Positions 802 through 51,252 of a DNA stretch of 64,000 nt are shown here, in pieces (position 1 is the first letter of the stretch; every line of letters begins with the position of its first letter). The DNA is from an uncultured Solirubrobacteraceae bacterium. GTDB lineage: Bacteria; Actinomycetota; Thermoleophilia; Solirubrobacterales; Solirubrobacteraceae. Under the pieces are notes generated by a model. It was given only the letters and a program-made list of their open reading frames with translations. It had not been told where the DNA came from and did not search any database. Position numbers and translations under genes: made by a program. The DNA is taken from the NCBI GenBank assembly GCA_964588985.1, contig CAZPQW010000001.1:290688-354687 (forward strand). Direction: 5' to 3'.

Positions 802-2009
802 GCCGCCGCCCGGTAGCGGCTCAACGTCCTCTCGCGCAGGCCCGGCCTGATGTTCGCCAGCTCCAGCTGACCCCGGTAGTGCTCGAGCACGCGATGGTCC
901 ATCACCACTCGCCACAGGGGCGGGACGATCGCGAGCACGATCATGCCCGCGTAGCCGGTGGGCAGCTGCGGAGCGTCATCGACGTGGCGCAACGCCTGGT
1001 AGCGGCGGATGGGGTTGGCGTGGTGGTCGGAGTGGCGCTGGAGGTGGTAGAGCAGCACGTTGGAGGCGGCGCTGTTGCTGTTCCAGCTGTGCTCTGGGCG
1101 CGTCCGCTCGTAGCGCCCGTCCTCGCGCTTCTGGCGCATCAGGCCGTAGTGCTCGAGGTAGTTGACGACCTCCAGCAGCGAGAAGCCGAACACCGCCTGG
1201 ATCAGCAGGTAGGGCAGGACGACCACGCCGAAGATCGCGACGAGCGCGCCGAACAGGACGACCGTCATGCCCCACGCGTTGAGGATGTCGTTCCGGGGGC
1301 TCAGCATTGAGGTGCCGACACGGCGCAGGCGCACCCGTTCGAGCTCCCACGCCGAGCGCAGGCTGCCGAGGATGGTGCGCGGCAGGAAGCGGTAGAAGCT
1401 CTCGCCGAGGCGGGCGCTGGCGGGGTCCTCGGGCGTGGCGACGCGCACGTGGTGGCCGCGGTTGTGCTCGATGAAGAAGTGCCCGTACCCGCTCTGGGCG
1501 AGCGCCACCTTGCTCAGCCAGCGCTCGAGCGAGTCGCGCTTGTGTCCGAGCTCGTGCGCGGTGTTGATCGCCACGCCGCTGACCATCGCGACGGTCAGCG
1601 CCAGCCCGACGTTCTCGAGCGTGGACAGGTTGCCGCGGGACCACATCCAGCAGGCGAAGACCAGGCCGGCGTACTGGATTGGGATGTAGAGGTAGGTGCA
1701 CCAGCGGTAGTAGCGGTCCTGTTCGAGCCACTTGATGACGCTGTCGGGGGGGTTGCTGGCGTCAGCGCCGATCGCGAGGTCGAGCAGCGGGAAGATGCCG
1801 AAGATGAGCACCGGTCCGTAGAACCAGAACACGCCCAGGCCTGTGAGTTCGACGAGGCCCCAGGAGAGGAACGGAAGCGTGGGCACGACCAGGCCGAGCA
1901 GCCACGCGTAGCGCTTCGGGTCGCGCCAGACCGCGTCCGTGGGCTCAGCATCGGCGCCAAGCGATTGGACGGCGGCGGGTTGTGCGCTGGCTGCTGCGGG
2001 TGTGGACAT
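798..2009 (-). CDS. alkB: Alkane 1-monooxygenase (membrane di-iron hydroxylase)
   Basis: Histidine boxes HELGHK, EHNRGHH, NYLEHYG, LQRHSDHHA and several TM segments. AGGAGG RBS upstream of ATG 2009. Confidence 0.97.
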   Translation of the reverse strand: MSTPAAASAQPAAVQSLGADAEPTDAVWRDPKRYAWLLGLVVPTLPFLSWGLVELTGLGVFWFYGPVLIFGIFPLLDLAIGADASNPPDSVIKWLEQDRYYRWCTYLYIPIQYAGLVFACWMWSRGNLSTLENVGLALTVAMVSGVAINTAHELGHKRDSLERWLSKVALAQSGYGHFFIEHNRGHHVRVATPEDPASARLGESFYRFLPRTILGSLRSAWELERVRLRRVGTSMLSPRNDILNAWGMTVVLFGALVAIFGVVVLPYLLIQAVFGFSLLEVVNYLEHYGLMRQKREDGRYERTRPEHSWNSNSAASNVLLYHLQRHSDHHANPIRRYQALRHVDDAPQLPTGYAGMIVLAIVPPLWRVVMDHRVLEHYRGQLELANIRPGLRERTLSRYRAAA

Positions 2010-2053
2010 GGGCTGGCGACCTCCTCTGTTGGGGCACGGCCGTTTCGCGCCGC

Positions 2054-2081
2054 ACTTTACAGCGATACGCAGTCGTGTCAA
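2054..2081 (-). promoter_or_regulatory. Putative alkB promoter overlapped by an imperfect inverted repeat
   Basis: Minus strand reads TTGACA-N16-TAAAGT. TTGACA-N14-TGTAAA is an inverted repeat with one mismatch. Confidence 0.5.
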
Positions 2082-2209
2082 GCAAAGTTACACACTGGCC
2101 GCAGTTGTCCTGCGTCGTGGGTGCGCCTCGCAAGACGGCGTGCACGGCTTTGACGGCCGGTACACTCGACTGGGCCGGTGTTCGAATTCGGAAAGCTCGT
2201 GAGGTCCTG

Positions 2210-3292
2210 ATGGGCGCAGCTTCGGTAGACGTTGGCGCTGCGGCGCGTGGCAGGCGGGTGCTTCCGATCGTGGCCCTCGGCTTGGCGATCGTGCTCGTGC
2301 TGCTGGTGGGCGGCGCGTACCTCTACGACCACTCGCGCAGGGACGTGATCGCCAACGGCGTGCGCATCGACGGGGTGGCGGTGGGCGGCCTGCACGCGAC
2401 GGCCGCTCGACAGAAGGTGGAACGCGACCTCGTTGCGCCGCTGCAGGGACGACTGACGGTCCGCTCGGGCGCGCACAGCTGGACGCTCGAAGGGCGTCAG
2501 GCGGGCGTGCGGGTGGACGTCTCCAACATGGTCGCCCAGGCGGTGAGCGCGAGTCGCGGAGGATCGTTCCTCTCCCGGGCCGCGCGTGGAGTGTTCGGCG
2601 GCAGCGTCAAGCACGAAGTCCCACTCGTGATCAGCTACTCCCACGCGGCCGTGCGCGCCCTCACCGCGAAGGTGCGAGCCGCGGTCAACCGCCCGCCGCG
2701 CGACGCCACCGTGCAGCCGACGGCGAGCGGGCTGAGCGATGTGCGCGGCCAGACGGGGCTGACCGTGGACAGCACGAAGCTTGGGGGGCGCATCGAGTCG
2801 GCGCTCGTGGGGGCGACGACGAGCCGCACCGTCGCAGTGCCCACCCTCAAGGTGCAGCCGAAGGTGACCACCGCGGAGCTGGCGGCGAAGTACCCCGCGT
2901 ACATCGTGGTCGACCGCGCGACGTTCCGGCTGAAGCTCTACAGCCACCTGAAGCTCGCGAGGACTTACGAAATCGCGGTTGGCATGGAAGGCCTGGAAAC
3001 GCCGGCCGGCCTGCACCACATCGAATGGAAGCAGGTCAACCCGCCGTGGTACGTGCCCAAGAAAGCGTGGGCGGGCTCGCTGGCGGGCACCGTCGTGCCG
3101 CCCGGGCCGGGGGACCCGTTGAAGGCGCGCTTCATGTCCTTCGAAGGCGGCGCGGGCATCCACGGGATCGACCCGAGCGAGTACTCCTCGATCGGCCACG
3201 ACGCCTCGCACGGCTGCGTGCGGATGCGCATCCCGGACGTGATCGATCTGTACGCCCGCACGCCCGTGGGCACGCCCGTCTACATCATCTAG
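2210..3292 (+). CDS. L,D-transpeptidase (YkuD domain) with N-terminal TM anchor and peptidoglycan-binding (PG_binding_4/VanW-like) region
   Basis: GIHG...IGHDASHGCVRM catalytic motif, IAVG...TPAG, N-terminal TM LALGLAIVLVLLVGG. Confidence 0.9.
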   Translation: MGAASVDVGAAARGRRVLPIVALGLAIVLVLLVGGAYLYDHSRRDVIANGVRIDGVAVGGLHATAARQKVERDLVAPLQGRLTVRSGAHSWTLEGRQAGVRVDVSNMVAQAVSASRGGSFLSRAARGVFGGSVKHEVPLVISYSHAAVRALTAKVRAAVNRPPRDATVQPTASGLSDVRGQTGLTVDSTKLGGRIESALVGATTSRTVAVPTLKVQPKVTTAELAAKYPAYIVVDRATFRLKLYSHLKLARTYEIAVGMEGLETPAGLHHIEWKQVNPPWYVPKKAWAGSLAGTVVPPGPGDPLKARFMSFEGGAGIHGIDPSEYSSIGHDASHGCVRMRIPDVIDLYARTPVGTPVYII

Positions 3293-7549: not shown

Positions 7550-8602
7550 TCAGTCCTCGCCTGGCGGTGCCCACAGATTGATCCCGCCCTCGTGTGCGTG
7601 ACGGTCGATCTGGGTGAGCTCGTCCGCATCGAAGTCGAGCCGCGAGAGCGCCGCGATGTTCTGCTCGAGCTGCTCAACGCTGCTTGCGCCGAGCAGCGCC
7701 GAGGTGACGCGCTCGTCGCGCAGCACCCACGCGATCGCCATCTGCGCGAGCGACTGCCCGCGCGCGGACGCGATCTCGGTGAGCGCACGCACGCGCGCGA
7801 GGTTCTCCTCTGTGAGTAGATCCGCGGAGAAGTAGTTGCCGCTGCGCACGCGCGAGTCGCTCGGGATCTCGTTGAGGTAGCGGTCGGTGAGCAGGCCCTG
7901 GGCGAGCGGGGAGAAGACGATCGCGCCGACGCCCTCCTGACCGAGCACGTCGAGCAACTCGCCCTCGATCCAGCGGTTCACCAGCGAGTAGGACGGCTGG
8001 TGGATCAGCAGCGGGGTGCCGAGCTCACGCAGGATGCGAACCGCGTCGAGGGTGCGTTGCGGTCCGTAGGAGGAGATGCCCACGTAGCGGGTGAGCCCTC
8101 GTTGCACCGCTGTGTCGAGCGCTCCCATCGTCTCTTCGAGCGGCGTGTCGGGGTCGAAGCGGTGCGAATAGAAGATGTCCACGTGGTCGAGGCGCATCCG
8201 CTGGAGGCTCTGCTCGAGGCTCGAGAGCAGGTACTTGCGAGAGCCCCACTCCCCATAGGGGCCGGGCCACATGTCGTAGCCCGCCTTGGTCGAGATCACG
8301 ATCTCGTCGCGGAAGGGGCGGAAGTCCTCGCTGTAGATCCGCCCGAAGTTGATCTCCGCGCTCCCGTACGGCGGCCCGTAGTTGTTCGCCAGGTCGAAGT
8401 GCGTCACGCCGAGGTCGAACGCGCGGCGCAGGATCGCACGGCTGTTGGCCAGCGGGCGGTCGTCACCGAAGTTCTGCCACAGCCCCAGGGAGATCGCCGG
8501 CAGGCGTAGGCCGCTGCGTCCGCAGCGGCGGTAGACCATCTCTCCGTAGCGCTCGTCCGCCGGTACGTAGCGCGACGGGGCGAGCTTGGAGTTGAACGCC
8601 AT
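7550..8602 (-). CDS. mgrA: L-glyceraldehyde-3-phosphate reductase, aldo-keto reductase (MgrA/YghZ type)
   Basis: YRRCGRSGLRLPAISLGLWQNFG, THFDLANNYGPPYGSAE, KAGYDMWPGPYGEWGSRKYL. Confidence 0.92.
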   Translation of the reverse strand: MAFNSKLAPSRYVPADERYGEMVYRRCGRSGLRLPAISLGLWQNFGDDRPLANSRAILRRAFDLGVTHFDLANNYGPPYGSAEINFGRIYSEDFRPFRDEIVISTKAGYDMWPGPYGEWGSRKYLLSSLEQSLQRMRLDHVDIFYSHRFDPDTPLEETMGALDTAVQRGLTRYVGISSYGPQRTLDAVRILRELGTPLLIHQPSYSLVNRWIEGELLDVLGQEGVGAIVFSPLAQGLLTDRYLNEIPSDSRVRSGNYFSADLLTEENLARVRALTEIASARGQSLAQMAIAWVLRDERVTSALLGASSVEQLEQNIAALSRLDFDADELTQIDRHAHEGGINLWAPPGED

Positions 8603-10082: not shown

Positions 10083-10877
10083 TCAGACGATGTCGACGGG
10101 CGTGCCGAGCGTCAGTCGCGGCGCGAGTCGCGCGATGTCCGCGTCGCGCATCCGGATGCAGCCGTGCGACGGGTCGCCCGGGATCAGCTGCGGTTCGCCG
10201 AAGTCGCCATGGATGCCCACCACGCCGCCTCCCGGCCAGTCGGTCAGCGTGGAGTAGTCCGACGTGCCGAGCGCGTAGGGCCAATAGGGGTTGCTGCGGT
10301 TGGTGAGGCGAAAGCGCTCGCGGATCCAGAAGTGACCCGGAGGGGTGGGGGAGCTCGGCTTGCCGACGCCGACCGGCGCCTGGAAGCGCCGGCGCCCTTT
10401 GTAGTAGGCGGTGAGTTGTCGCTTGTGCAGGCTCACCACCACCAGCCAGTGCGTCACGTGAAAGCCGCCCAGATCTTCACGTTGCACCCATCCGGTCCGT
10501 CCGTTCGGGCGTCCGGGGACCCGCAGCTCGACCCACACCTGTCCCTGCGTGTCGGTGTGTCTTGCGAGCAGCAGGTAGACCTCGGGGAAGCCGTCCTCGG
10601 TTTCCAGGTGGATGCTCGCAAGCCTCCGCGCGTGTGCTTCCGGCTTCGTGTAGATCGGCGCGCTTTCGACGGGGTGCGCCCACGTGGTCAGCGTTCGCTC
10701 GTTGGAAAGACTCACGTCCGCCGGTGGGCCGGATGCGGGTGGCGCCGGCTGTTGTTCCGGCGGAGCCTGCGTGGGTGGCGTTGCGGGTGTTTCTGCGTTT
10801 GCGAGCGGCATGCCCACCTGCAAGAGCACAAACGCGAGCCCGCATGCCGCGAGCGCCACTCGTGTTCGTCTCAGCAT
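10083..10877 (-). CDS. Secreted L,D-transpeptidase (YkuD) with an SH3-like N-terminal domain
   Basis: Signal peptide, Pro-rich linker, WVELRVPGRPNGRTGWV, VGVGK...TPPG, VGIHG...GDPSHGCIRM catalytic His/Cys. Confidence 0.92.
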   Translation of the reverse strand: MLRRTRVALAACGLAFVLLQVGMPLANAETPATPPTQAPPEQQPAPPASGPPADVSLSNERTLTTWAHPVESAPIYTKPEAHARRLASIHLETEDGFPEVYLLLARHTDTQGQVWVELRVPGRPNGRTGWVQREDLGGFHVTHWLVVVSLHKRQLTAYYKGRRRFQAPVGVGKPSSPTPPGHFWIRERFRLTNRSNPYWPYALGTSDYSTLTDWPGGGVVGIHGDFGEPQLIPGDPSHGCIRMRDADIARLAPRLTLGTPVDIV

Positions 10878-10976
10878 CGCCGGGCCCTCATTCCTGTCCA
10901 CGATTGTGAGGCACCGGCGCGGGCGACGGTCGCTGCTTGCGACCGCTGCCCGCGCCAACTGCCTTCCTGCCTCGAC

Positions 10977-12626
10977 TCAGCCGGTGAACCTGGGGCTCAC
11001 GGTACGCGCGGCGCAGCGCGCCAGCGTCTGGTGAATCGTTTTGGACGGCGTTTTGCTGGACGCCGTGAACACCACGTGGATCGACAGGTGGTGCTTGGAG
11101 CCCGCGCGCAGGCCGATGCGGAGCGCGAACGCTCCATGGGTCGACTTGAGCAGCGTCTTGACCTTGTGACCGTCGAGCGTGAACGTCACGGACGCGATCG
11201 AGCTGCCCCGAACCGACGCGAGGTAGCCGGTCTGGGCGACGCAGCCGCGAACACCGGCTGCGTGTGCCGAGCCTTTCGGCGCGACTACTTCTTTCGTGCC
11301 GAGGACGGCACCGGCCGGCGGGGGCGTGGTAGTCACCACGACCGGCGCCGTGACCCATGTCTCCTGGGCCGTGGCGTGCTGTACCGATTCTCCCAGCGTG
11401 ACGCTGGCGTTGATCGTGTCGGTGCCCACGCCGTTGGTGTCGGGGTAGGTGAACACGACCTTGCCGGCGCCGTCGGTCTTGCATTCGGGGTCGGCTTCGC
11501 CGCTCGGATACGTGCAAGTTCCGCTCACGCCGGCGTTCTGGCCGGTGACGGCGAAGCTCACCACGGTGCCGCCGACGGGTTCAAGCGAACCGGCCATCGG
11601 CCGGACGCCGGCCGCGCGGGCCGAGGGGATCTCGAGTGTTTCCTGCACCACCGTCGCCGTCACCGCGTGGGTGCCGCCTGCGACGTCGCTGTGCGTGACG
11701 GGTTCGAGGCTGAGGTTCGGCGAGCTGACGATCACGCCGGTTCCGGCCACGAGCACGTAGGCCTGACCACAGGCCGTTTCTTTGGTGCTCGGGTCTGTGC
11801 CGCACGTCGGTCTCGTTTCCGTGTCCGTCGCCACGGCCAACGCGTTCCAGTCGGTCGGGAAGGCGGGGAACGTGACGTGGTCCGAGCACTCCCAGCCCTG
11901 GATGTCGGCGTCGGTCAGAGCCGTCGGCCCAGTTTCGAACGCGGGGTTGGAAGCGATCTGCTGCACGCTTCCGCCGCACGGCGGATCGCTGTTCTCGGTC
12001 CAGTGCCCTGGGCCCGTCGTGGTCAGCTGATCCAGCACGGAGACATCGAGGCCCGAGTCGTCGCAGCTGGTGTCGTAGTAGACGCCGGTCGCGCCGGGGA
12101 TGGCGCCCGCGAAGGCGATGCCGTCCTGCACCAGATGCTCCGCTCCGGCTGTGGCCGGTTCGGCCGGGTTCGTCGGCGAGGCTCCGCCTCCGCCGTACTG
12201 GTAGTGGTCCTCAGGGTCGGTGCCGACGAGCGCGCGGTTGCCCGAGCTGCCCATGACGACCGGCGCCCACGTTCCCGCGCTGTTGTTGGCCGACACAGCG
12301 GTGTCGCCGCAGTTCGGGTCGCCCACGATCAGCACCTGGTATTTCGCGAATTCGGCAGCCGTCATTGCTTCCCAGGCCGATCCCGAGACGACGGTCACCG
12401 AGAACCCCGCGTTTTCGGCGGCGAACTGCTCGAGGCTGATCGGCGTTTCGCCCTTCGTGATCCCGTCGCTGGTCGTGACGGATTCTTCGTTGATCAACGC
12501 CGTGTTGGCGGTGCTGGTGGCACTCGCGATTCCCGGCGCCGTGGCGGCCGCCAAGGGCACGCTCAGTGCCGCAAGCGCGGCTGCCGATACGGCAGCGCGC
12601 CGTAGAAGTTGCATCGTCGACTTCAT
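10977..12626 (-). CDS. Secreted multidomain surface protein with a Big_1/invasin-like Ig domain, ending in PRFTG
   Basis: Signal peptide, VSFAVTGQNAG...TDGAGKVVFTY...GTDTINAS Ig motif, TTTPPP linker, basic C-terminal domain, ...ARCAARTVSPRFTG-stop. Confidence 0.8.
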   Translation of the reverse strand: MKSTMQLLRRAAVSAAALAALSVPLAAATAPGIASATSTANTALINEESVTTSDGITKGETPISLEQFAAENAGFSVTVVSGSAWEAMTAAEFAKYQVLIVGDPNCGDTAVSANNSAGTWAPVVMGSSGNRALVGTDPEDHYQYGGGGASPTNPAEPATAGAEHLVQDGIAFAGAIPGATGVYYDTSCDDSGLDVSVLDQLTTTGPGHWTENSDPPCGGSVQQIASNPAFETGPTALTDADIQGWECSDHVTFPAFPTDWNALAVATDTETRPTCGTDPSTKETACGQAYVLVAGTGVIVSSPNLSLEPVTHSDVAGGTHAVTATVVQETLEIPSARAAGVRPMAGSLEPVGGTVVSFAVTGQNAGVSGTCTYPSGEADPECKTDGAGKVVFTYPDTNGVGTDTINASVTLGESVQHATAQETWVTAPVVVTTTPPPAGAVLGTKEVVAPKGSAHAAGVRGCVAQTGYLASVRGSSIASVTFTLDGHKVKTLLKSTHGAFALRIGLRAGSKHHLSIHVVFTASSKTPSKTIHQTLARCAARTVSPRFTG

Positions 12627-12834
12627 GTCTAACCCCCCAGAGGTGACAGTTGGTCGTCGCCCATCCATGGCGACAGATTTGTGATTGTTACGCGGCTTGG
12701 ATTTCGCGCGTCCCAGGCAAAGACATCAGTGTCTCCCGTAGCCCGGAGCACGGCAACCGCACTTCAGTCGCTGGAAGGTAGCGAAACGAAGGCGTTTTTA
12801 CTAGGGCTGGAGCCGCCGTGCCAGATTCGGGGGT

Positions 12835-13659
12835 TCAGCCCCCGCCGCGGCCCATCCCACGACGCATCCGATGTACGCGCCGCATCTCCTGTACAGCCTC
12901 GTCGTGTCCACCCAGAGCGCTCGAGGGACCGTCGCCAAGGAGTTCGACGTCGAGGCGCTTGCGCACGAGCTCGCCCGCGATCGCGTCAACCCTCTGCGCG
13001 CCCGCTCCGGGACGGGAGCTGACGGCGCGCTCGAGACGATGTCCACGGAACAGCAGCCCCACACCGTCGTCGAGGGCCCAGCCTCCGGGCAGCGTGCCGT
13101 CGCGCACGCCCGCCAGCCACACGGGCAGGCGCTCCGGCTCGCCGTCGGCGTGGACCGTGAGCGAGCCGTCCAGCAGCCCCAGCCCGTCGATCGCTTCCGG
13201 GGGGCCGCTGGAGCGCGTGACCCCGGCCTGGAACCAGCACATCGCTCCGGCGCTCAGGCCCGCGAGGACGGTGCCCGCGCGCCAGGCCTCGAGCAGCAGC
13301 TGGTCGAGGCCGTGCGCCTGCCAGATGGCGAGCAGGTTGCGCATCGAGCCGCCGCCCACGTACAGGATGTCCTGCTCGAGGACCGTCTCCTGCAGCGAGC
13401 GAGTGGTCTCGCGCAGGCGAAACAGCGACAGGTGTTCGGGCACGCAGCTGCGGTCGGTGAAGCGGGCTTTGAAGGCGTTGATCTGCGCGGTGGTGTCGCC
13501 GGAGGCCGTCGGAAGGAACAGGATCCGCGGCACGGTCGGCCTCGCCAGCGACAGCACGTAGTCGTCCAGCAGCGGGTTGTTCGGCTCCATCGTGAAGCCA
13601 CCGCCGCCCATCGCGAAGATCACCCGCGAGTCGATCGGCACGGCGGGCAGCTCACTCAC
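12835..13659 (-). CDS. Peptidase E (S51 family) paralogue 2
   Basis: IFAMGGGGF, LFLPTASGD, YVGGGS, GLSAGAMCWF. GTG 13659 overlaps the TGA of paralogue 1. Confidence 0.88.
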   Translation of the reverse strand: MSELPAVPIDSRVIFAMGGGGFTMEPNNPLLDDYVLSLARPTVPRILFLPTASGDTTAQINAFKARFTDRSCVPEHLSLFRLRETTRSLQETVLEQDILYVGGGSMRNLLAIWQAHGLDQLLLEAWRAGTVLAGLSAGAMCWFQAGVTRSSGPPEAIDGLGLLDGSLTVHADGEPERLPVWLAGVRDGTLPGGWALDDGVGLLFRGHRLERAVSSRPGAGAQRVDAIAGELVRKRLDVELLGDGPSSALGGHDEAVQEMRRVHRMRRGMGRGGG

Positions 13660-14480
13660 GCGGCGACCCGCTGACGTGGGGAGCGAGCCGAGCCGGATGC
13701 GGACATGGAGCGCCCGCGGCTGGGCCCCGGTTCCGCCGCGGGCGCGTCCACGCGCGGTGCGGGCGCGCCGAGGTAGGAGACCTCGAGCGGCGTCTCGCGC
13801 ACGCCGTTGCCGCTCGCTTCCACGTGGTAGGCGCTGCCGTCGGGGCGTGAGCTGACCGCGCGCTCGAGCAGTGTGCCGTGGAAGTGCAGCGCCACGCCGT
13901 CCTCCACCGCAAACCCGGGGCGCATGCCGTCGGCGACCGCGCGGTGATACTCCGCTCGGCGTGCCGGCTCGGCGTCGTAGTGGACGCAGTTCGAGTAGGG
14001 CAGGAGCCCGAGGCCGCGCACCGGTCGAGGGTCGCCGTGGAAGGCGCTCAGCGCCTGCTCGAACCAGCACAGCGATCCCGCGGATGGCCCGCACAGCACG
14101 ATCCCGCGCCGCCACGCCTTGCGCAGGATCGCGTCGAGGCCGTGCGCTCGCCAGGCGCCGAGCATGCTCAGCACGTTGCCTCCGCCTACGTAGATCAGAT
14201 CCTGCGAGAGCAGGTGGCTGGCTAGGTCGTCCTCGACGCCCCCGGTGCCCTGGTCGCGGCGAAACAGCGACACGTGACTCGCCTCGCATCCGGGAGAGAA
14301 CCGACGGTAGAAGCGCACCACGTAGTGGTCCGCGTCGCCCGATGCTGTCGGCAGGAAGCAGACCCTCGGGCGCGGGTTGCGCAGCAGCGAGAGCACGTAG
14401 TCGTCCAGCAGTGAGCCGTCTTTCTCCATCGAGAAGCCGCCACCACCGAGCGCGACGATCTGGGGAGACGTGGATGGCAT
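13656..14480 (-). CDS. Peptidase E (S51 family) paralogue 1
   Basis: IVALGGGGF, CFLPTASGD, YVGGGN, GPSAGSLCWF, NCVHY. Confidence 0.9.
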   Translation of the reverse strand: MPSTSPQIVALGGGGFSMEKDGSLLDDYVLSLLRNPRPRVCFLPTASGDADHYVVRFYRRFSPGCEASHVSLFRRDQGTGGVEDDLASHLLSQDLIYVGGGNVLSMLGAWRAHGLDAILRKAWRRGIVLCGPSAGSLCWFEQALSAFHGDPRPVRGLGLLPYSNCVHYDAEPARRAEYHRAVADGMRPGFAVEDGVALHFHGTLLERAVSSRPDGSAYHVEASGNGVRETPLEVSYLGAPAPRVDAPAAEPGPSRGRSMSASGSARSPRQRVAA

Positions 14481-19503: not shown

Positions 19504-20970
19504 ATGACGCTGCGCACGCGGATCGCGGCGGTGGCGAGCGTGTCGGTGGCAGTCGCGGTGCTGGCCGCTGCGATCGGCCTGTACGTCGCGGTGCGCTCGG
19601 ATCTGCGCGGCGAAATCGACAGCGCGCTGCGCGCCCGCGCGCGGGCGTTTGCGCAACCCCTCGCCGCTGGGCCGTATGGGGGCGGACCGGGAGCTGGACT
19701 CGGCGCCCTCCAGCCCGGCGGACCGCAGCCAGACGGCAGCCGGCCGGACGCGGACCGCTCCGCCGCGGGAGGCGCGCGGACGGGCGGCTTTCCCGGCAAC
19801 GTGCAGCCGGCGCCGTTCGGAGCGGCGTCGGGCTACGTGCAGTTCGTCTCGCCGCAGGGACGGGTGTTCGTGCCGGGCGGCCAGGGAACTTCGCCGACGC
19901 GGATCGTGCTCACATCCTCGGACCGTTCGTTCGCGCGCTCGGGCAGCGGCAGCAGCCTGACGGACAGATCGGTCAAGGGGACGCACCTGCGCGTCCTCAC
20001 CGTCGGCACCGGCGCGGGCGGCGCGGTGATGATCGTGCGTCCGCTCACGGAGGTGGAACACGAGCTGGGCAGACTGCTGCTGATCCTCACGCTGATCGGC
20101 GCGGGCGGGATCGTGCTGGCCGCGTTGCTGGGGACGCTCGTCGCCCGCACGGCGCTCGCCCCGATCGCGCGGTTCACCCGCAGCACTGAGACCCTGACGG
20201 GCGACCTCGACCTGTCCAGACGCCTGGAGGTGCGCGGCCGCGACGAGCTGGGGCGCCTGGCGGAGAGCTTCAACGGCACGCTCGACGCGCTCGAGCGCTC
20301 GGTCGGCGCTCAGCGCCAGCTGATCGCGGACGCCAGCCACGAGTTGCGCACGCCGATGTCCTCGCTGCGGGCGAACATCCAGATCCTCGGCGAAGCGGAG
20401 AGGATGGGGGCGCAGGAGCAGGAGAGCCTGCGCTCCGACATCGTGGCCGAGCTCGACGAGCTGACCGCTCTGGTGGGCGACGTGGTCGAGCTGGCCAGAG
20501 GCGCGGCGCCCGAGATCGAGGCAGAAGACGTACGTCTGGACGAGCTCGTCGGGGGCTCAATAGAGGCCGCCCGCCGTCGACGCGGAGATCTCCACTTCGA
20601 GGTTCAGCTGGAGCCCACGCTCGTTCGCGGTCAAGCCGACCGCATCGCAAGGGCGGTCTCCAACCTGATGGACAACGCCCGCAAGTGGAGTCCCGCCGGC
20701 GGGACCATCGAGGTCGAGCTGGCCGACGGCGTGCTGAGCGTGCGCGATCACGGGCCCGGCTTCGCGGAGTCCGACCTGCCCCTGGTGTTCGATCGCTTCT
20801 ACCGCGCGCGGGACGCACGCGGCCTGCCCGGCTCGGGTCTGGGACTCGCGATCGTCCGCCAGGCCGCGGAGGGGTGCGGCGGCTTCGCGGAGGCGTCCAA
20901 CGCGCCCGGAGGCGGGGCGCTGCTGCGCGTGGGATTCGGGCCGCGGTTGCAGCTCGACATTGCCGGTTGA
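19504..20970 (+). CDS. HAMP sensor histidine kinase (MprB-like); alternative start GTG 19465
   Basis: Two TM segments, HAMP (DELGRLAESFN), ADASHELRTP, NLMDNA, DHGPG, GSGLGL. Confidence 0.92.
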   Translation: MTLRTRIAAVASVSVAVAVLAAAIGLYVAVRSDLRGEIDSALRARARAFAQPLAAGPYGGGPGAGLGALQPGGPQPDGSRPDADRSAAGGARTGGFPGNVQPAPFGAASGYVQFVSPQGRVFVPGGQGTSPTRIVLTSSDRSFARSGSGSSLTDRSVKGTHLRVLTVGTGAGGAVMIVRPLTEVEHELGRLLLILTLIGAGGIVLAALLGTLVARTALAPIARFTRSTETLTGDLDLSRRLEVRGRDELGRLAESFNGTLDALERSVGAQRQLIADASHELRTPMSSLRANIQILGEAERMGAQEQESLRSDIVAELDELTALVGDVVELARGAAPEIEAEDVRLDELVGGSIEAARRRRGDLHFEVQLEPTLVRGQADRIARAVSNLMDNARKWSPAGGTIEVELADGVLSVRDHGPGFAESDLPLVFDRFYRARDARGLPGSGLGLAIVRQAAEGCGGFAEASNAPGGGALLRVGFGPRLQLDIAG

Positions 20971-21181
20971 TGGCGGCGCGCCGGCGCGCGAAACGCGCTA
21001 AGTTCGATCAACTCGCATTTCAGCCGGGAGGCGTATGCTGAAGCGGAGGGATATAGGGGCTTGACTGCAGGAAATACGCAGCGTTCGTCTAATACGACGA
21101 GCGAAGCCCCGCAACTTTGGGGATTTGGAGGAGTCACAAGAGGGTAGACGGCAGGTGCACTGGTTCTATAGGGAGGTTGGC

Positions 21182-24100
21182 ATGGGGTCTCGCGTTCGTT
21201 CTTTGTTCTTCGCGCTGCTGGTTGGTGCGCTTGTTGGGATCTCGGCGCCAGCCGCGCTCGGTGCTGTGGGCATCGAAAAATTTGTGGCGGTCAACTGCCA
21301 GGAAGGGTTTGAAGAATGCGCTGAAGAAAGCTTCGGCCCCTACTCCATACCCAAGGAACCCACCAAAGAAGAAGCCGAAGAAGCCGGCTACACCCAGGCC
21401 GGTGGACACGTGCCCTATGGCGTCACCGACTTCAAGGTGACAACGGTGGGGGAACTCGCCAAAAACGAACAGGTGCCGACCGGTGTGGTGACGCACATCA
21501 GAACCGACGTCGCCCCGGGTCTCGCGACCAATCCGTTTGCCACCGAACAGTGCACGATGGCTCATTACGACGGCTCGGCGAAAGAAGAAGAAGCGATCCC
21601 GGGCACAGGCTTCTATGCGAAACCCACTTGTGGAGCCGAAAGCATCATCGGCGAAAACAAGGTGACTGTCTACGCAGGGCCTGCCGGCGACGTGCCGATC
21701 ACAGGCAACGTCTACAACCTCGTGCAGCCGGAAGGTCTCGCGTCGGACTTCGGCGTGGCGCTCAAACTCCCGATCCCGCTCACCAAAGGCGCGCTCGAAA
21801 AAGCGTTCGCGGAAAAAGGCCACCCTCTCGGTAAACCCACCGAAGAATTCCTCGAGGAACAGCAGTACTACGCCCACACCTTGATCGAAGGAAACGTCGA
21901 ATGGGGTCAGGAAGCGAAGGGCACGAACCAAGGCGACTACCACGACTACTTCGAAATCGACGTCTCGCCGGCGCTGCCGCTGATCAGTTCGCGTCTGGTC
22001 TTCTACGGCCGCAGCGGTGAAGGCGACTTCGTCACGAACGCGACCAGCTGTCCTGGACACAACACCACGACACTGCATCTGACCGAAGCGGGAGGCACTG
22101 CAACCCAGGCCTACACCAGCCCGGTCAGTCTCTCTGGATGCAGCGCAGTGCCGTTCGCACCGACCTTCGCCCTCACCCCGGCGACGACCGCGTTCGACCA
22201 GCCCGACGGGTTCACGACCGAAGTCGGCGTACCTCATCAGACGGGCGAAGAAGAAATCGACAGCTCACAGCTGAAAGACGCGACCATCAAGCTTCCGGAA
22301 GGCATGACGCTGAACCCGTCGGCCGCCCCCGGGCTGACCGCGTGCACGCCAGCCGAAGCACGGATTCACAGCTCGCAGGCCGGCATCGGATGCGCGAAAA
22401 CCGCTGAGCTCGGCACGGTCAACCTTGATGTCCCGACGCTGCCCGATGGATCTCTGAACGGCAAGATCTACCTCGGCGGCCCGGAAGACGAAAAAACGCA
22501 TGCGCTGCTTCCGATCACCGGGCCTCCGTACACCATCTACGTAGACGCGGAGTCCAAGCGCTATGGCGTGTCGGTGCGCATCAAAGGCGAAGTGACGCCC
22601 AACGAAACCACCGGGCAGCTCACGACGGTGTTCTCGGAAAACCCCGAACAGCCGTTCACGAGTATCGCGCTGCAGTTCAAGGAAGGCGCGCTCGCGCCCG
22701 TCGCCAACCCGCTCACATGCGGGAGCGCTACTAGCGAAATCAGTCTCGTTCCGGTCGCGAAACCATTGACGTCAGCCGTCCTGAAAGACGCGTTCACGGT
22801 CGACAGCAACGGCGCCGAAGGCGCCTGCGCATCGCCGACTCCGTTCGCGCCGACTCAGGGCACCGCGACACAGGTTCCGAGCGGAGGAGTGCACACGAAC
22901 TACACGTTCGCCCTGCAGCGCAACGACGGCGAACAGTACCTCTCCAAAGTCACGACGACTCTCCCCGCGGGCCTCGTCGGCGCGATCCCCGCGGTGGCGC
23001 TGTGCACCGAAGCTCAGGCGACGGCCGAAAGCTGTCCGGCTGAAAGTCTGATCGGGAAAGTGACGGTGTCGGCCGGCGCGGGCCTCACGCCCGACACGCT
23101 CACGGGCTCGGTCTACATGACCGGTCCGTATGCGGGAGCGCCGTACGGGATGTACATCTCCGTGCCGGTCGTCGCCGGTCCGTTCAACCTCGGCAACTCG
23201 ATCACGCGCGCAACGGTCAACATCGACCCGAAGACGGGTCGCGTGATCGTGAGCAGCACGCTGCCCACGATCGTCAAAGGCGGCGTACCCGTCCGTCTGC
23301 GCAAGCTGAGCCTGGAGATCAACCGTCCGGGCTTCCTGACGAACCCGACGAGCTGCGGTTCGCTGGCGACCGAATCGACCGTGACTGGGCTCGGCGGCAC
23401 GAGCGTGAGCCTGTCCACCCCGTTCCAGGTCGAAAACTGCTCGGCGCTCGCATTCAAACCGTCGTTCAAGGCGGCCACGAGCGGGAACCCGACCAAAGCG
23501 GGCGGCGCGAGCCTCGAAACGACGATCGCCCAGACGGCAGGCCAGTCGAACATCAAATCGGTGGTGGTGCAACTGCCCAAGCAGTTGCCGTCGCGTCTGA
23601 CCACGCTGCAGAAAGCGTGCGGCGCGGCGACGTTCGACGCCAACCCCGCAAGCTGCTCGCCCGAATCCGTGGTCGGCAGCGTCCGGGCGACCACGCCGGC
23701 ACTGCCTGGCAAACTCCAGGGCGTGGCCTATCTGGTCGGACACGCGGGGGCGGCGTTCCCCGATCTCGACCTCGTGCTCGACGGCGACGGCGTGCGCGTG
23801 ATCCTGGTCGGAAACACGGACATCAAAAACGGCATCACCACGACGACGTTCGCCACCACGCCTGACGTGCCGGTGACGAGCCTCACGGTGAACCTGCCGA
23901 TGGGCCCGCATTCGGCGCTCGCGGCGTTCGGCAGTCTGTGCGCCAAACCGCTCGTGATGCCGACGACGATCGTCGGGCAGAACGGCGTGACGGTCAAACA
24001 GAACACGATCATCAATCCGGTCGGCTGCGGCGTGAAGATCGTCGGGCACAAGGTCATCGGCAACACCGCCTACCTCACGGTCCAAACCCCGTCCGCGGGC

Positions 24101-47867: not shown

Positions 47868-48203
47868 CTAGTGCTCTTCGAATGGAGAGCGGCCGGGCGA
47901 GCCGGGGGAGTACGCGGGGATGGCCTGCGTGGCGATCGCCTCGACCGCCTGCTCCTCCGCCTCGCTCAGCTCCTCCTCGTGATCGCCGTCGCACAGCACG
48001 CGGAAGTTGCCGGTGACGCCGCTGTCGGCGTGGATGGTGATGCCCGGCAGGATCTCCTCGCCCTCGTCGAGCCCGAGGCGCTCGAGGTCGAAGTGCGCGA
48101 GCCCGATCCCAAACGCGGTGTGCGTGGGGTTCTCGCGGTCGTGCGCCGCAACCGCCTGGGCGAAGCGCTCGAGGTTCTTGGCGATCTTGGCTGTGTCGGC
48201 CAT
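47868..48203 (-). CDS. Hypothetical acidic protein, 111 aa
   Basis: ATG with GAAAG upstream and GC3-rich codons. No recognised motif. Confidence 0.7.
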   Translation of the reverse strand: MADTAKIAKNLERFAQAVAAHDRENPTHTAFGIGLAHFDLERLGLDEGEEILPGITIHADSGVTGNFRVLCDGDHEEELSEAEEQAVEAIATQAIPAYSPGSPGRSPFEEH

Positions 48204-48243
48204 CGCTTTCGGAGGGTAGCGCGGCGGGCTGTAGATTGGCGCG

Positions 48244-48855
48244 ATGCGTGCACGTCTGCGCTTGGCGCTCTCCCTGCGTGTCCTGCCCGCGCGGGTCGCC
48301 CTCTTCTACTGGCGCGCGCAGCGGCTGGCTCGCCGAGACGACGACCGCTTCAGCCTGGCCTCGGCGGCGCGGCCCGCGGAGCTGGCCGAGCTGCTGAGCC
48401 TCGCTCGTGGTCGCGGGGCGGTCGTGGAGCTGGGTACGGGAACGGCATGGAGCGCGATCGCGCTCGCACTCGACGACCCGGTGCGAAGGGTCATCAGCTA
48501 CGACCCTTGCGTGCGGGTCGAGCGCGAGGGCTATGTGGTTCTCGCTGGCCAGGGCGTGCGCGAGCGGATCGAGCTGCGCGAGGAGCCCGACAGCAACGGG
48601 CCGCACGCGGGCGATGCGCCGGTGGAGATGCTGTTCATCGACTCACATCACGAACGCGAGCCGGTGGTGAGCGCCTTTCGCGCGTGGAGAGACGCGCTCG
48701 CACCGAACGCGGTGGTGGTGTTCCACGACTACGGGCACCCGGACTATCCCGGCGTGGCGGAGGGGATCGCGGACATGGGGCTGAGCGGGGTCGAGAACGG
48801 GGGGCTGTTTGTTTGGCGGGTGGCGGCTGGGGGTGCGGTCGAGGCTGCTCGGTGA
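48244..48855 (+). CDS. Class I SAM-dependent methyltransferase (Methyltransf_24-like)
   Basis: VVELGTGTAWS, LFIDSHH, VVVFHDY, PGV. Confidence 0.85.
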   Translation: MRARLRLALSLRVLPARVALFYWRAQRLARRDDDRFSLASAARPAELAELLSLARGRGAVVELGTGTAWSAIALALDDPVRRVISYDPCVRVEREGYVVLAGQGVRERIELREEPDSNGPHAGDAPVEMLFIDSHHEREPVVSAFRAWRDALAPNAVVVFHDYGHPDYPGVAEGIADMGLSGVENGGLFVWRVAAGGAVEAAR

Positions 48856-48906
48856 GCGATAGATAAGGCCCGTCGAGCACTACGATCTCAGACTGGAAGA
48901 CAAGCC

Positions 48907-49098
48907 ATGAGCGACTACCACATCAACCTCTTCTACAGCGAGGAGGATGCGGCCTACGTGGCCGACATCCCCGCTTTGGAGGCGTGCTCGGCGTTCGGTG
49001 CCACGGCCGAGGCCGCTCTCGCAGAGGTTGATCAAGCCAAACGTGTCTGGCTTGATGCGGCCAAGGAGGCTGGCCGTCCGATCCCTGAGCCGCGATAG
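48907..49098 (+). CDS. Short HicB-like antitoxin domain protein, 63 aa
   Basis: YHINLFYSEEDAAYVADIPALEACSAFGAT..EALAE...WL......GRPIPEP. Confidence 0.85.
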   Translation: MSDYHINLFYSEEDAAYVADIPALEACSAFGATAEAALAEVDQAKRVWLDAAKEAGRPIPEPR

Positions 49099-49165
49099 CC
49101 GGTCGACGAGGAAGGCGCGAAGTCCCAACCGTTCCGACAACGTTGATCCATAGGATGGGGCATCT

Positions 49166-50278
49166 GTGAACGCAGAGCGACTACACACGGCGGCGAAAGC
49201 TCTCGTGGCCGAGACAGACGGGACCGCGGGCCACCTGCAGGAGCTGCGCAGTGCCGTGCGGCAGGCTGCGAATAACCCGGGCGATGGGGCTAGTCAGCAA
49301 CAGGTCGCCCCGCTGCGTGACGCGCTTTTCAAATGGCTCGACCGTGCGCCTTCGGAGGAAATGACTGCTCTCGAACGCGAAGCCCTCAAGGAGCTCAACG
49401 TCGAGCCCCTCTTGGGCAATCAGCTGCGCAAACGAGTCGAAACGGTCTTCAGGCGCAACGGGGTAACGCCCTCGATGGCCGCCGACGAACTGGACGAGCT
49501 GGTGGCTGCGCTCGAGGAGCTAAGGGGATCGCTTGGCTATTTGATCCAAGCGTTCGCCTATTTCAGCATCGGTGCTGACACGCTCGAAGCGGGAGAAGTT
49601 GAGGTTAGTGTTCTTGTACCCCGCGGTGCCGTTCACGAGGGCCTTGCCGCGCTCGGACAAGAGTTCATCAGCATCAAGAAAATCATTGACCCATTTAGTG
49701 AGCTACTAACCGGTTCTCGTGACGACGTGACGGTGAGGACGATCGCGTCGTCGGAGTTCGAGATCTTCGTAGCGCTCGCACCGGTCGTCGCTGCGCATTT
49801 CGCTAAGGCCGTCGAAACCGTTCTTAACATCTACGAAAAAGTCCACAGCATCCGAAAAGCCAGCGAGGAACTCGAGAAGACGGGCGTTGAGCCTTCGGTG
49901 GTGGCGCTCCTTCAGGAGCAGGCCAAGACGATCACAAGAAACGAGATAAACGTCTTTGTCGAGAATCTCCTCGGCGAAATTCAGATGGATGACGAGGCAC
50001 GCCGGAACGAGCTGCGTATTGACCTAGCAAAGCAGCTCGTGGAGCTAGCGACGCGGCTCGACCACGGATACAAAGTCGATCTTAACGCGGCGGCTTTGCC
50101 TCTGCCTGCTGCGGGTGAGTCCGAGCCAAGCGGTCGGCCCGCCCAACGAGCCGCAGTCGAAGAGGTCATCTCGGCGCGAGGGCGACTGAAGGCGTTTAAG
50201 CTTACTGGCAAGCCGATCCTAGCTTTGCCGGAATCGGCGAGTTCGGAGGGCCAAGCCAGCGAGGGCGAGGTCAGCTAG
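49166..50278 (+). CDS. Hypothetical protein, 370 aa, atypical codon usage
   Basis: Long ORF with visibly more A/T-ending codons than neighbouring genes. Helical/coiled composition. No recognised motif. Confidence 0.75.
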   Translation: MNAERLHTAAKALVAETDGTAGHLQELRSAVRQAANNPGDGASQQQVAPLRDALFKWLDRAPSEEMTALEREALKELNVEPLLGNQLRKRVETVFRRNGVTPSMAADELDELVAALEELRGSLGYLIQAFAYFSIGADTLEAGEVEVSVLVPRGAVHEGLAALGQEFISIKKIIDPFSELLTGSRDDVTVRTIASSEFEIFVALAPVVAAHFAKAVETVLNIYEKVHSIRKASEELEKTGVEPSVVALLQEQAKTITRNEINVFVENLLGEIQMDDEARRNELRIDLAKQLVELATRLDHGYKVDLNAAALPLPAAGESEPSGRPAQRAAVEEVISARGRLKAFKLTGKPILALPESASSEGQASEGEVS

Positions 50279-50285
50279 GCCAGCG

Positions 50286-50327
50286 TTACATTGACGGCTG
50301 CTCGATGAACTCGATCCGACACCCGTC
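50286..50327 (-). repeat. Degenerate copy of the glyoxalase 3' end (DGCRIEFIEQPSM*)
   Basis: 23/27 nt identical to the glyoxalase codons for DGYRIELIE (manual count), in frame to its own stop. Confidence 0.75.
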
Positions 50328-50381
50328 AAGGTAGTTACCAGTTTGCAACTCGTCCGACGCCCCGGCTGACCTGTGGCGGAT

Positions 50382-50417
50382 TCAGGCCGTCTCGATCAGC
50401 TCGATTCGATGCCCCTC
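50382..50417 (-). repeat. Degenerate copy of the glyoxalase 3' end (EGHRIELIETA*)
   Basis: 24/29 nt identical to the glyoxalase codons for DGYRIELIET (manual count), in frame to TGA. Confidence 0.75.
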
Positions 50418-50482
50418 GCGGTACCGAACCGATAGGGCAGCGGCTCCAGCTGGATTTGGACGGAAGTTGGTACGTTTGCGCG

Positions 50483-50695
50483 ATGCACGTGGGCATCAAA
50501 CCTCTTGACTCCCGTGGCGAGTACCTTGTCGACCTGCTGGAGGATGGATACGCAGCCCAGTTCGCCGGCCGAACTCCTGACGGGGTGTGGCTGTTCCTCG
50601 GGGACTTTCCTCAGGCGCTCGAGCTGTACCAGAGTCGCCTCGCCGTCGTGGAGCCCGAGTGGGCCGAGCACGTTGAAGCGCGACTTTATGACTGA
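50483..50695 (+). CDS. Small hypothetical protein, 70 aa
   Basis: MHVGIKPLDSRGEYLVDLLEDG...EPEWAEHVEARLYD, lying between the glyoxalase end and the nearer repeat copy. Confidence 0.55.
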   Translation: MHVGIKPLDSRGEYLVDLLEDGYAAQFAGRTPDGVWLFLGDFPQALELYQSRLAVVEPEWAEHVEARLYD

Positions 50696-50764
50696 GGAGC
50701 GCAAGAGCGTCCGCCGAGCGGGCGTCCGGATCTCGCTCTCGATCTAAGCTTGAGTCTCCAGCCG

Positions 50765-51154
50765 CTAATCGGACGAGGGATTTGTCTCAATTAGCTCGAT
50801 CCGATACCCGTCCGGGTCTTTGACGAAGCAGAGCCGCGAGCCGCCCTCGCGGATCGAGTACGGCGGCTTCTCCGGCTCGATCCCCTGCTCGGCGAGCTTG
50901 GCGAGGGTCGCATCCAAATCCTCTGCAGTGATCGCGATGTGGCCGTAGCCGCTGCCGATCTCGTATGAGTCCACCCCGAAGTTGAAGGTCAGCTCCAGGC
51001 GCGGCATGTTGCCGTCGCCGGGCTGGTTCATGAACACGTTCACCGCCTCATCGCGGATCGGTATGCGTCCGACCTCCTCGAAGCCGAGGGCTTTGTAGAA
51101 GGCCACCGAACGGTCGATGTCGGTAATGCGATAGCAGGTGTGGATCAGAGCCAT
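50765..51154 (-). CDS. gloA: VOC family protein, lactoylglutathione lyase (glyoxalase I)-like
   Basis: LIHTCYRITDIDRSVAFY, LELTFN, YEIGSGYGHIAI, FVKDPDGYRIELIE. Confidence 0.9.
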   Translation of the reverse strand: MALIHTCYRITDIDRSVAFYKALGFEEVGRIPIRDEAVNVFMNQPGDGNMPRLELTFNFGVDSYEIGSGYGHIAITAEDLDATLAKLAEQGIEPEKPPYSIREGGSRLCFVKDPDGYRIELIETNPSSD

Positions 51155-51252
51155 CCGCGAAGTGTAGGGCGGGGGCGCGTCGCCTGTGGCCGCTGCGTTT
51201 CGTCTCAAGCGATTCGTAGCGTGAGCTTCCGCGTGTTCGAACGGAGGTTGCA

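Follow-up and report, generated by a model that had tools for sequence, protein, structure and literature searches.

How is a secreted protein held at the cell surface if it ends in a motif that recalls a sortase signal with nothing behind it, and what does the L,D-transpeptidase (LDT) encoded next to it do? This question is raised by a locus in a 64,000-nucleotide (nt) stretch of an uncultured Solirubrobacteraceae bacterium (contig CAZPQW010000001.1 of assembly GCA_964588985.1, positions 290,688 to 354,687), hereafter the window. Here a 549-amino-acid (aa) protein ends in the bare pentapeptide P-R-F-T-G, and the gene of an exported LDT follows on the same strand. The original prediction saw in this pair a candidate for sortase-independent cell-wall anchoring. 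We found that P-x-F-T-G tails are strictly terminal, sit on unrelated exported-looking proteins and are coupled, one-to-one as well as many-to-one, to one clade of LDTs that combine an SH3b-like with a YkuD domain. Tail and LDT are very probably functional partners. That the LDT removes the Gly and anchors the protein to peptidoglycan via the Thr, much as a sortase would, has in our estimate a probability of about one in two, the chemistry being argued by analogy.

The tailed protein and the adjacent L,D-transpeptidase

The open reading frame (ORF) at 10977-12668 on the minus strand encodes a product whose C-terminus, ...TLARCAARTVSPRFTG (also given as ...HQTLARCAARTVSPRFTG), runs directly into TGA. 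The database protein P0001 is identical, has 549 aa and starts with MKSTMQ, which places the gene start at 12626. The product carries a classical signal peptide, with cleavage placed by eye between ...LAAATAPGIASA and TS. It ends as originally described: the stop follows SPRFTG immediately, and neither a hydrophobic segment that could form a transmembrane helix nor a basic tail comes after the motif. No Pfam family matched the protein at E<=0.01 (only a sub-threshold DUF302 match appeared at E<=10), no NCBIfam model matched it, and a model for the tail was found in neither Pfam nor NCBIfam. The 'Ig-domain' label first given to the protein was not confirmed by Pfam; Big_1 and PKD domains were found only in its homologues. 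Residues ~30-300 gave a weak structural lead to a GATase1-like/BPL_N fold (TM-score 0.42-0.48; feature scores 0.78, under the lead threshold), and two invariant cysteines, C462 and C538, delimit a unit made up of the last ~90 residues.

The LDT gene starts with an ATG at 10877, on the same strand and exactly 99 nt past the stop of the tailed gene, and no terminator-like site was found on the genes' strand within this spacer (10878..10976). Its product matches Pfam YkuD (PF03734) with E 1e-18 and 68.7 bits (cut-off 23.4), and two paralogues in the same genome score 77.8 and 68.8 bits. Both H223-G224 and S237-H238-G239-C240 are present, with H223, S237, H238, G239 and C240 invariant across 39 LDT sequences. 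An AF2 model (pLDDT 85.4) retrieved Bacillus subtilis YkuD as the closest solved structure with Foldseek (4a1i_A, E 5e-10; 1y7m_A, E 1.2e-9; 30-33% identity), as well as LdtMt1 and LdtMt2. The window enzyme is a bona fide YkuD-family member, and the intact HG...SHGC motif and the 99-bp distance of the original prediction both stand.

The SH3-like domain that had been read into the enzyme is supported at the level of fold. Residues 56-146, an all-beta domain, gave a pLDDT of 89.5 when folded alone with 39 sequences, and the best structural matches were all SH3b domains (4krt_B, Z 8.9, rmsd 2.5, 73 residues aligned; 9ovi_B, Z 8.7, rmsd 2.1, 65 aligned; 3pvq_A, Z 8.3, rmsd 2.5, 65 aligned), with the SH3b domain of lysostaphin at Z 6.6; no Pfam SH3 family matched this domain, and the assignment is one of fold only. 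The domain may keep the enzyme on peptidoglycan or bind the Pro-containing tail. It also distinguishes the enzyme from B. subtilis YkuD, which has the same catalytic-domain fold but an N-terminal LysM domain and for which we know of no protein substrate.

The tailed ORF and the LDT ORF lie in one frame across a single TGA in the window (10977-10979) and on contig C10 of the same genome (L002 around 8048-8054). Stop read-through or a fusion of the two ORFs was considered and rejected, the shared frame being at the level of chance (13 of 52 adjacent pairs, with 21 and 18 in the other two frames).

Tails and transpeptidases in the same genome

Among the six-frame stop-to-stop ORFs of at least 100 aa in the 3.41-Mb genome (n=17,099), only four end in FTG, and in three of these cases a YkuD gene comes next downstream on the same strand. 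Of the six YkuD genes in the genome, three share the SH3b-like architecture with the signature PGRPNG(R/S)TGW, and these are exactly the three with an FTG gene upstream; the three of other architectures have no FTG neighbour. The second pair consists of a DUF7507 protein (C3:62171-63748) ending in ...VRCSSNVVSPKFTG and the LDT downstream of it. In the third, an Ice_binding protein (C10:70854-72050) has a basic linker and then ...HHTGAFTG, with the LDT start immediately adjoining its stop. All three passengers are unrelated to one another, that of the window having no Pfam family. Within this genome the tail is thus linked to every LDT of the subfamily (3/3).

In the C3 pair, the first ATG, GTG or TTG of the LDT paralogue (L001 8100-8270 (-), G000:C3) is reached only 11 nt past the TAG that ends the PKFTG gene and opens the sequence MLAVSPLPV... 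A signal-like stretch, RRSSPVSLAAVLAV, lies just upstream of this start, in frame and overlapping the end of the substrate gene, with no canonical start codon before it.

The genome encodes one sortase (G000:C13:19329-19694, 92.5 bits), on another contig than the window. The statement that there is no sortase therefore holds for the window and not for the genome and, since the genome encodes one, that the system is sortase-independent is something we infer.

A second YkuD gene of the window (1847-3292 (+), Pfam match 2897-3286) has a long N-terminal region with a membrane-like segment and lacks a neighbour ending in FTG; the control set below was drawn from its relatives.

Linkage in related genomes

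An LDT-centred scan with one genome per species yielded 457 relatives, from which the 80 best loci were selected, 77 of them with 1 kb or more of sequence upstream. In 43 of the 80 loci, the LDT match is preceded on its strand by an FTG-ending ORF of at least 90 aa whose stop is 0-363 nt away, with Pro at position -5 in 41 of the 43 tails. A further 20 loci have an FTG ORF downstream or divergent, which brings the total to 63. In a matched control covering 1.5 kb on either side within the same class, FTG-ending ORFs numbered 49 of 1581 in subfamily LDT loci and 0 of 601 in 29 loci around the other YkuD architecture of the window (Fisher p 2.5e-7, a value overstated by the relatedness of the genomes). 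The association of tail and LDT subfamily proposed from the single locus is thus upheld across relatives.

Whole-genome scans for PxFTG followed by a stop gave a consistent picture. G001 and G002 each have one site, adjacent to their single subfamily LDT. Both sites of G003 (Paraconexibacter antarcticus) adjoin LDTs, and two more of its LDTs have SKFTG or AAFTG neighbours. LDT-tail pairs number at least four in the cultured P. antarcticus 02-257 (L062, L090, L091, L158). Among the three LDTs of G004, one has PRFTG upstream and one GSFTG. The sites of G005 are mostly dispersed (16 sites, two LDTs). The reversed pattern, as a control over these five genomes, gave 1 match against 24. Sites adjacent to LDTs also make up 2/2 in G215 and 0/2 in G150. 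Adjacent pairs were further found in families f8 (G218, G166, L121, L122), f47 (G114) and f5 (L119), the loci from f5 and f8 having a P.FTG ORF upstream of the LDT. One more pair occurs in G244, a genome flagged as unpublished on which no conclusion depends.

In a quick maximum-likelihood tree of 111 LDT rows, the FTG-linked enzymes fall into a clade of 88 rows (SH-aLRT 99; 48 adjacent to a tail, 20 with one nearby, 20 with none) and a sister pair from f8, and the relatives from f13, f21, f23, f4 and f7 are almost all unlinked to FTG. Linkage labels are clustered on this tree (25 changes, against 48.4 on shuffling).

Pro at -5 is absent from the tail in three places: GAFTG on contig C10 of the own genome (L002 6855-8764), GSFTG in G004 (L154 3296-5227) and FGLTG, twice in tandem, in G192 (L120 3800-5891). 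The LDTs of L002 and L120 group together in the tree (SH-aLRT 98), that of L154 not being among its rows, and this grouping hints that tail type and LDT clade co-vary.

A third conserved component was sought by all-against-all clustering of the 2947 ORFs of the 80 loci and rejected. The clusters present in more than 9 loci were the LDT, two alternative-frame or antisense shadows of its gene, and the 549-aa passenger family.

Conservation of the tail and the proteins that carry it

Homologues of the 549-aa protein numbered 293, of which the best 120 were listed and examined. In 86 of these 120, P-x-F-T-G stands at the exact C-terminus (R at position -4 in 77, T in 5, S in 3 and N in 1), so the tail is conserved among homologues as the original prediction would have it. 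P545, F547, T548 and G549 are invariant in a 41-row alignment, as are C462 and C538. Six of the 34 tail-less proteins among the best 120 end instead in a hydrophobic segment with basic residues. Two of the six have LPLTG or LPRTG there, and one is named in its source 'LPXTG-motif cell wall-anchored protein'. One and the same passenger can therefore end in the bare tail or in a classical sortase signal. In four other homologues (P0079, P0082, P0085 and P0087), the PRFTG unit is replaced by another conserved C-terminus, ...YHTC..K(L/Q)PGH.YLPL-stop, with a Cys about 13 residues from the end.

The motif P.FTG stands mostly at the very end of proteins. The ORFs of at least 90 aa in the 80 LDT loci contain it 67 times, in 61 cases as the last five residues, in 2 no more than 40 residues from the end and in 4 further inside. 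Position -4 in the other tailed proteins may also be K, N, S, P, A, E or H.

Pfam was run on 53 of the 68 FTG ORFs, the others being 13 further members of the 549-aa family, an LGFTG ORF (L030:199-1845) and a 113-aa ORF (L066:1472-1813). Families were found in 41 of the 53 and include SdrD_B, SpaA-like prealbumin folds, DUF11, DUF7507, VWA, PKD, Big_1, fn3, Ice_binding and beta-propellers, next to exoenzyme-type and other families (secretory lipase, phosphoesterase, S9 peptidase/esterase, Ferritin_2). This is the repertoire usual on sortase substrates, plus exoenzymes. By a crude signal-peptide rule (a basic residue, a 12-residue hydrophobic stretch and A-x-A), 44 of the 60 FTG ORFs of at least 300 aa are signal-peptide-like, compared with 486 of 4042 genome ORFs. 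The tail thus sits on unrelated and mostly secreted-looking proteins, another point on which the prediction holds. Many tails are preceded by a Thr-rich, Pro-rich or strongly basic low-complexity linker and are therefore not a strand of a folded domain.

These carriers bear on whether the LDT, if it processes the tail, does so in order to anchor the protein. It might only hydrolyse off the Gly, for maturation or release, or couple the Thr carbonyl to an amine on a second protein and build a pilus-like polymer; we regard this as rather unlikely. Pilin- and adhesin-like architectures do occur (VWA, SpaA-like and DUF11 in L048 and L049; SpaA_4 and DUF11 in L051, L052, L066 and L071), and several loci have two tailed genes. 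Some YkuD-fold enzymes are hydrolases, such as DpaA, which removes Gly or Lys at position 4 according to the portion of PMC8263019 that deals with it. Enzymes, ice-binding proteins and ferritin-like proteins are, on the other hand, improbable polymer subunits, and trimming of the Gly alone has no evident purpose. The SH3b-like wall-binding fold of the enzyme points to peptidoglycan as the second substrate, and the long Thr-rich, Pro-rich or basic linkers resemble wall-spanning segments, both of which favour anchoring.

A second lineage with one enzyme and many tails

In a phylum sample of 301 genomes (tallies include G231, G053, G244, G093, G153, G023 and G179, flagged as unpublished), family f30 stands apart. 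Its four genomes (about 2.4 Mb, GC about 0.6) have 19, 19, 17 and 8 PxFTG-TGA sites, with controls at 0-1. Each encodes exactly one YkuD gene, which belongs to this subfamily and has a lipoprotein-like signal and an S-N-G-C active site; sortase genes number one or two per genome. In one of the four, G110, 7 of the 12 tailed ORFs match the NCBIfam choice-of-anchor Q domain (NF041518; 31-77 bits, cut-off 25), which ends 20-60 residues before the tail, and in these ORFs a Thr-rich linker and then [VA]P[AT]FTG follow the domain. The 'choice-of-anchor' families are named after their pairing with alternative C-terminal sorting signals. Together with the loci of f5 and f8, the phylum sample bears out the remark of the original prediction that similar tails occur in related Actinomycetota.

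A phylum-wide correlation of presence and absence by DNA pattern was dropped, since apart from f30 the counts were 0-3 per genome, close to those of the reversed-pattern control. Family f6, which seemed to offer tails without an LDT, was likewise rejected as a counter-example, its counts being at noise level (pattern versus control: G080 6 vs 2, G065 1 vs 4, G122 2 vs 1); no LDT of the subfamily was found in f6 at E<=1e-20. A PGFTG-TAG site in G080 (C30:817-834) lies 1.4 kb downstream of a YkuD gene of another architecture (2219-2557 (-)), on the same strand, and may be noise or a divergent pairing.

That tail and LDT have no functional link, the tail serving other machinery as a signal or forming a structural end-piece, with the LDT a neighbour by synteny only, appears highly improbable in view of these data. 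Much of the adjacency does come from related Solirubrobacterales genomes with inherited synteny, and one passenger family accounts for 32 of the 80 loci. The neighbourhood is nevertheless seen with unrelated passengers and whether the tailed gene lies upstream, downstream or divergent, as well as in three paralogous pairs of one genome and in the distant families f5, f8 and f30, while the control YkuD loci have none (0/601). A tail behind low-complexity linkers is not part of a fold, and no third conserved gene was found in the loci.

Proposed mechanism

We propose that P-x-F-T-G-COOH is a C-terminal sorting signal that would be read by a dedicated, exported LDT subfamily with SH3b-like and YkuD domains. 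The passenger would be exported through its N-terminal signal peptide, and its free C-terminus would occupy the LDT donor site that otherwise takes a tetrapeptide stem; Thr would stand for the L-centre of the diamino acid and Gly for D-Ala4. Cys240 would then attack the Thr carbonyl, the Gly would leave, and the thioester would be resolved by a side-chain amine of peptidoglycan, so that the protein would end up amide-linked to the wall via its Thr, as with a sortase. The enzyme may be encoded beside a substrate, as in the window, or elsewhere serve many dispersed substrates. Binding at the active site, release of the Gly and the nature of the acceptor are the steps that we infer. In this scheme the LDT clade would be a sortase analogue that couples surface proteins to peptidoglycan, with Thr-Gly-COOH mimicking diamino acid-D-Ala-COOH as acyl donor, for which we see about even odds.

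LDT donors lose exactly one C-terminal residue with a free carboxylate, the D-Ala4 of the tetrapeptide. This would explain the strict terminal position of the motif, the single residue after the Thr and the achiral Gly. Terminal Gly4 is in fact handled by YkuD-fold enzymes, since LdtD puts Gly in the place of D-Ala4 and the mDAP-Gly bond is cut by DpaA (PMC8263019, in the sections available), which makes Gly-release chemistry plausible.

In the LDT-protein links documented in the available part of the same source, the protein is the amine acceptor and the stem the donor, Lpp being attached via its C-terminal Lys and outer-membrane proteins via an N-terminal Gly or Ala (PMC8263019). Similarly, an enzyme acylated by a peptidoglycan tetrapeptide could pass this stem on to an amine located in the tail or close to it. 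This is the sole experimentally established LDT route for attaching proteins, and Lpp too is recognised at its extreme C-terminus, as that part of PMC8263019 reports. The tail, however, contains no conserved amine: its terminal residue is Gly, position -4 may be R, K, N, S, T, A, P, E or H, and the 41-row alignment shows no conserved Lys among its last 10 residues. An acceptor role of the protein is thus very unlikely.

A complex of LDT residues 53-264 with substrate residues 440-549 was predicted with a score of 0.47, the best of three controls reaching 0.02. Runs agree in at least 70% of contacts, with partner pLDDT of at least 76. In a benchmark, 116 of 157 solved complexes passed the mark for such predictions, as did 2 of 215 mismatched pairs; only 18 of the 157 passed it with a score of 0.60 or less, and so did both of these mismatches. 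The co-prediction asked for by the original prediction hence gave weak support, with a score above the controls.

Such a score indicates at most binding, not catalysis, and would fit a PxFTG-COOH that is bound uncleaved by the SH3b-like domain or the cleft of the LDT, so that the passenger is held at the wall or recruits or regulates the enzyme. The N-domain has an SH3b fold, which in endolysins and lysostaphin binds short peptides; the tail begins with a Pro, and genomic coupling suits any physical partnership. A one-to-one binder fits poorly where one LDT gene faces 8-19 tailed genes. Moreover, the invariant T-G, the strict terminal site and the single residue after the Thr are what a transpeptidase donor needs and exceed what a docking peptide usually shows, and homologues exchange the tail for LPXTG, a covalent anchor. 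We therefore consider docking without cleavage unlikely and covalent anchoring the better account.

Several observations count against covalent anchoring by this clade. As for the linkage, in 17 of the 80 LDT loci the nearest 4 kb or so contain no FTG ORF, FTG neighbours are lacking for one LDT in G004 and for two in G003, and no P.FTG ORF lies upstream in 16 loci of A1-like LDTs from families f13, f21, f23, f4 and f7. Outside f1, f5, f8 and f30, phylum-wide pattern counts are at noise level, and the genomes and loci compared are phylogenetically related, so that statistics overstate their independence. As for export, 20 of the 68 tailed ORFs have no obvious signal peptide by the crude rule, and the C3 LDT paralogue has none when canonical start codons are used. 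No signal peptide is evident either in two proteins of G110 that end in PNFTG and PGFTG; their tandem genes (G110:C1:1421000-1427800; L098 3858-4607 and 4576-5322 (+)) encode an N-terminal ubiquitin-like domain (Rad23 UBL region, E 2e-11 and 1e-12). As for the chemistry, a protein as LDT donor would be unprecedented, an L-Thr within an ordinary alpha-peptide bears little chemical resemblance to the D-iGlu-mDAP context, and the weak complex prediction comes without reported contacts or a position for the tail. Taken as a whole, the earlier interpretation has gained from the conservation of the tail, its unrelated secreted carriers, its linkage to the LDT and its presence in related taxa, but much less from the structure co-prediction.

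Comparison with known anchoring systems

The system most resembles sortases and LPXTG signals. In both, a Cys transpeptidase has as its partner a C-terminal motif that ends in x-T-G. Cleavage is proposed to fall between T and G, after which the Thr carbonyl would pass to an amine of the wall. The passengers are of the same kinds (SpaA-like, SdrD_B, DUF11, VWA, choice-of-anchor), and the enzyme is encoded beside a substrate or serves many; homologues of the window protein even bear LPXTG signals instead. There are also differences. The partner in the window has a YkuD fold and does not belong to the sortase family (PF04203). The tail is without the transmembrane helix and basic tail of the tripartite signal, is exactly C-terminal and has a single leaving residue, and PxFTG has Pro at -5 and Phe at -3 instead of L-P-x. 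Finally, the LDT is secreted or of lipoprotein type with an SH3b-like domain, whereas sortases are membrane-anchored.

The attachment of Lpp by LdtA/B/C in Escherichia coli and the tethering of beta-barrel outer membrane proteins and LimB in Alphaproteobacteria and Coxiella share with the PxFTG system a covalent protein-peptidoglycan link made by the YkuD family, and Lpp is also recognised at the extreme C-terminus (PMC8263019, available sections). There, the protein gives the amine and the stem is the acyl donor, while the PxFTG tail, in which neither a conserved C-terminal Lys nor any other conserved amine is found (Gly is terminal and -4 variable), would be the donor. Those systems tether the outer membrane of diderms, and the PxFTG system occurs in Actinomycetota on diverse surface proteins and enzymes. 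LdtD exchange and DpaA (LdtF), which act on TetraGly4 muropeptides, likewise show YkuD-fold sites making or breaking a bond to a C-terminal Gly with a free carboxylate (same sections of PMC8263019), but the residue before the Gly is the meso-DAP of the stem rather than a protein Thr.

The pairings of PEP-CTERM with exosortase, PGF-CTERM with archaeosortase, GlyGly-CTERM with rhombosortase and MYXO-CTERM with myxosortase are similar in that a short C-terminal signature on unrelated secreted proteins is matched, many-to-one, with a dedicated enzyme, and they were found through the same comparative-genomic logic, as far as the accessible text of 10.1101/2023.06.07.544157 goes. In that text, the described prokaryotic C-terminal sorting signals all consist of a signature, a transmembrane segment and an Arg cluster, and 'YkuD' has 0 occurrences. 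These pairings rely on an integral-membrane protease, in contrast to PxFTG, which is a signature only and is matched with a transpeptidase whose domain is soluble. A full-text literature search, to which supplements and subscription-only papers did not belong, found no paper on PxFTG or PRFTG tails or on an LDT with a protein as donor.

The system is thus a candidate for wall anchoring mediated by a Cys transpeptidase, with strong support from comparative genomics and a chemical mechanism proposed by analogy. If the mechanism applies, it would be a third enzymatic route for covalent protein display on bacterial walls, besides sortases and Lpp-type tethering, in which the role of LDTs toward proteins is reversed from acceptor to donor, and PxFTG-COOH would be the first bacterial cell-wall sorting signal needing no membrane-spanning segment. 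A single lipoprotein-type LDT would serve as housekeeping enzyme for about 20 proteins in some Actinomycetota, choice-of-anchor Q proteins included. Surface decoration in poorly studied yet abundant soil Actinomycetota (Solirubrobacterales and others) would be explained, and a signal peptide plus a terminal PxFTG would become a rule for predicting surface proteomes. Protein engineers may find of interest a minimal, five-residue, membrane-independent C-terminal ligation tag with a soluble enzyme, and carbapenem-sensitive LDTs might have roles other than cross-linking. Even the association alone, if real, makes the tail-LDT pair a clean and testable enzyme-substrate prediction.

Features of the window

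The coordinates of the two genes and their parts are collected in Table 1.

Table 1. Features of the tailed gene and the LDT gene, in window coordinates
Feature	Coordinates	Strand	Basis or remark
Gene of the 549-aa PxFTG-tailed secreted protein	10977..12626	-	includes TGA stop 10977-10979; passenger without Pfam family
Signal peptide, residues 1-36 (MKSTMQLLRRAAVSAAALAALSVPLAAATAPGIASA)	12519..12626	-	cleavage after ASA read by eye from sequence
C-terminal unit, residues 440-549, with invariant C462 and C538 as bounds and the tail at its end	10980..11309	-	alignment; portion put into the complex prediction
Terminal pentapeptide P545-R-F-T-G549, candidate recognition and cleavage motif	10980..10994	-	sequence, alignment
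99-nt spacer between tailed gene and LDT gene	10878..10976	-	sequence
Gene of the 264-aa exported LDT: signal peptide (residues 1-28), Pro-rich linker, SH3b-like domain, YkuD domain	10083..10877	-	
SH3b-like N-terminal domain, residues 56-146, signature PGRPNG(R/S)TGW	10440..10712	-	fold and sequence comparison
YkuD catalytic domain, residues ~145-263	10089..10445	-	Pfam, Foldseek
Catalytic motif S237-H238-G239-C240, C240 the presumed nucleophile	10158..10169	-	sequence, alignment

Just upstream of the tailed gene and on the same strand, the window encodes tandem Peptidase_S51 paralogues (12835-13560 and 13656-14480 (-), E 1e-34 and 3e-40). The G+C content of the window falls to 0.62-0.65 at 20001-24000 and 48001-52000 and is about 0.69-0.74 elsewhere.

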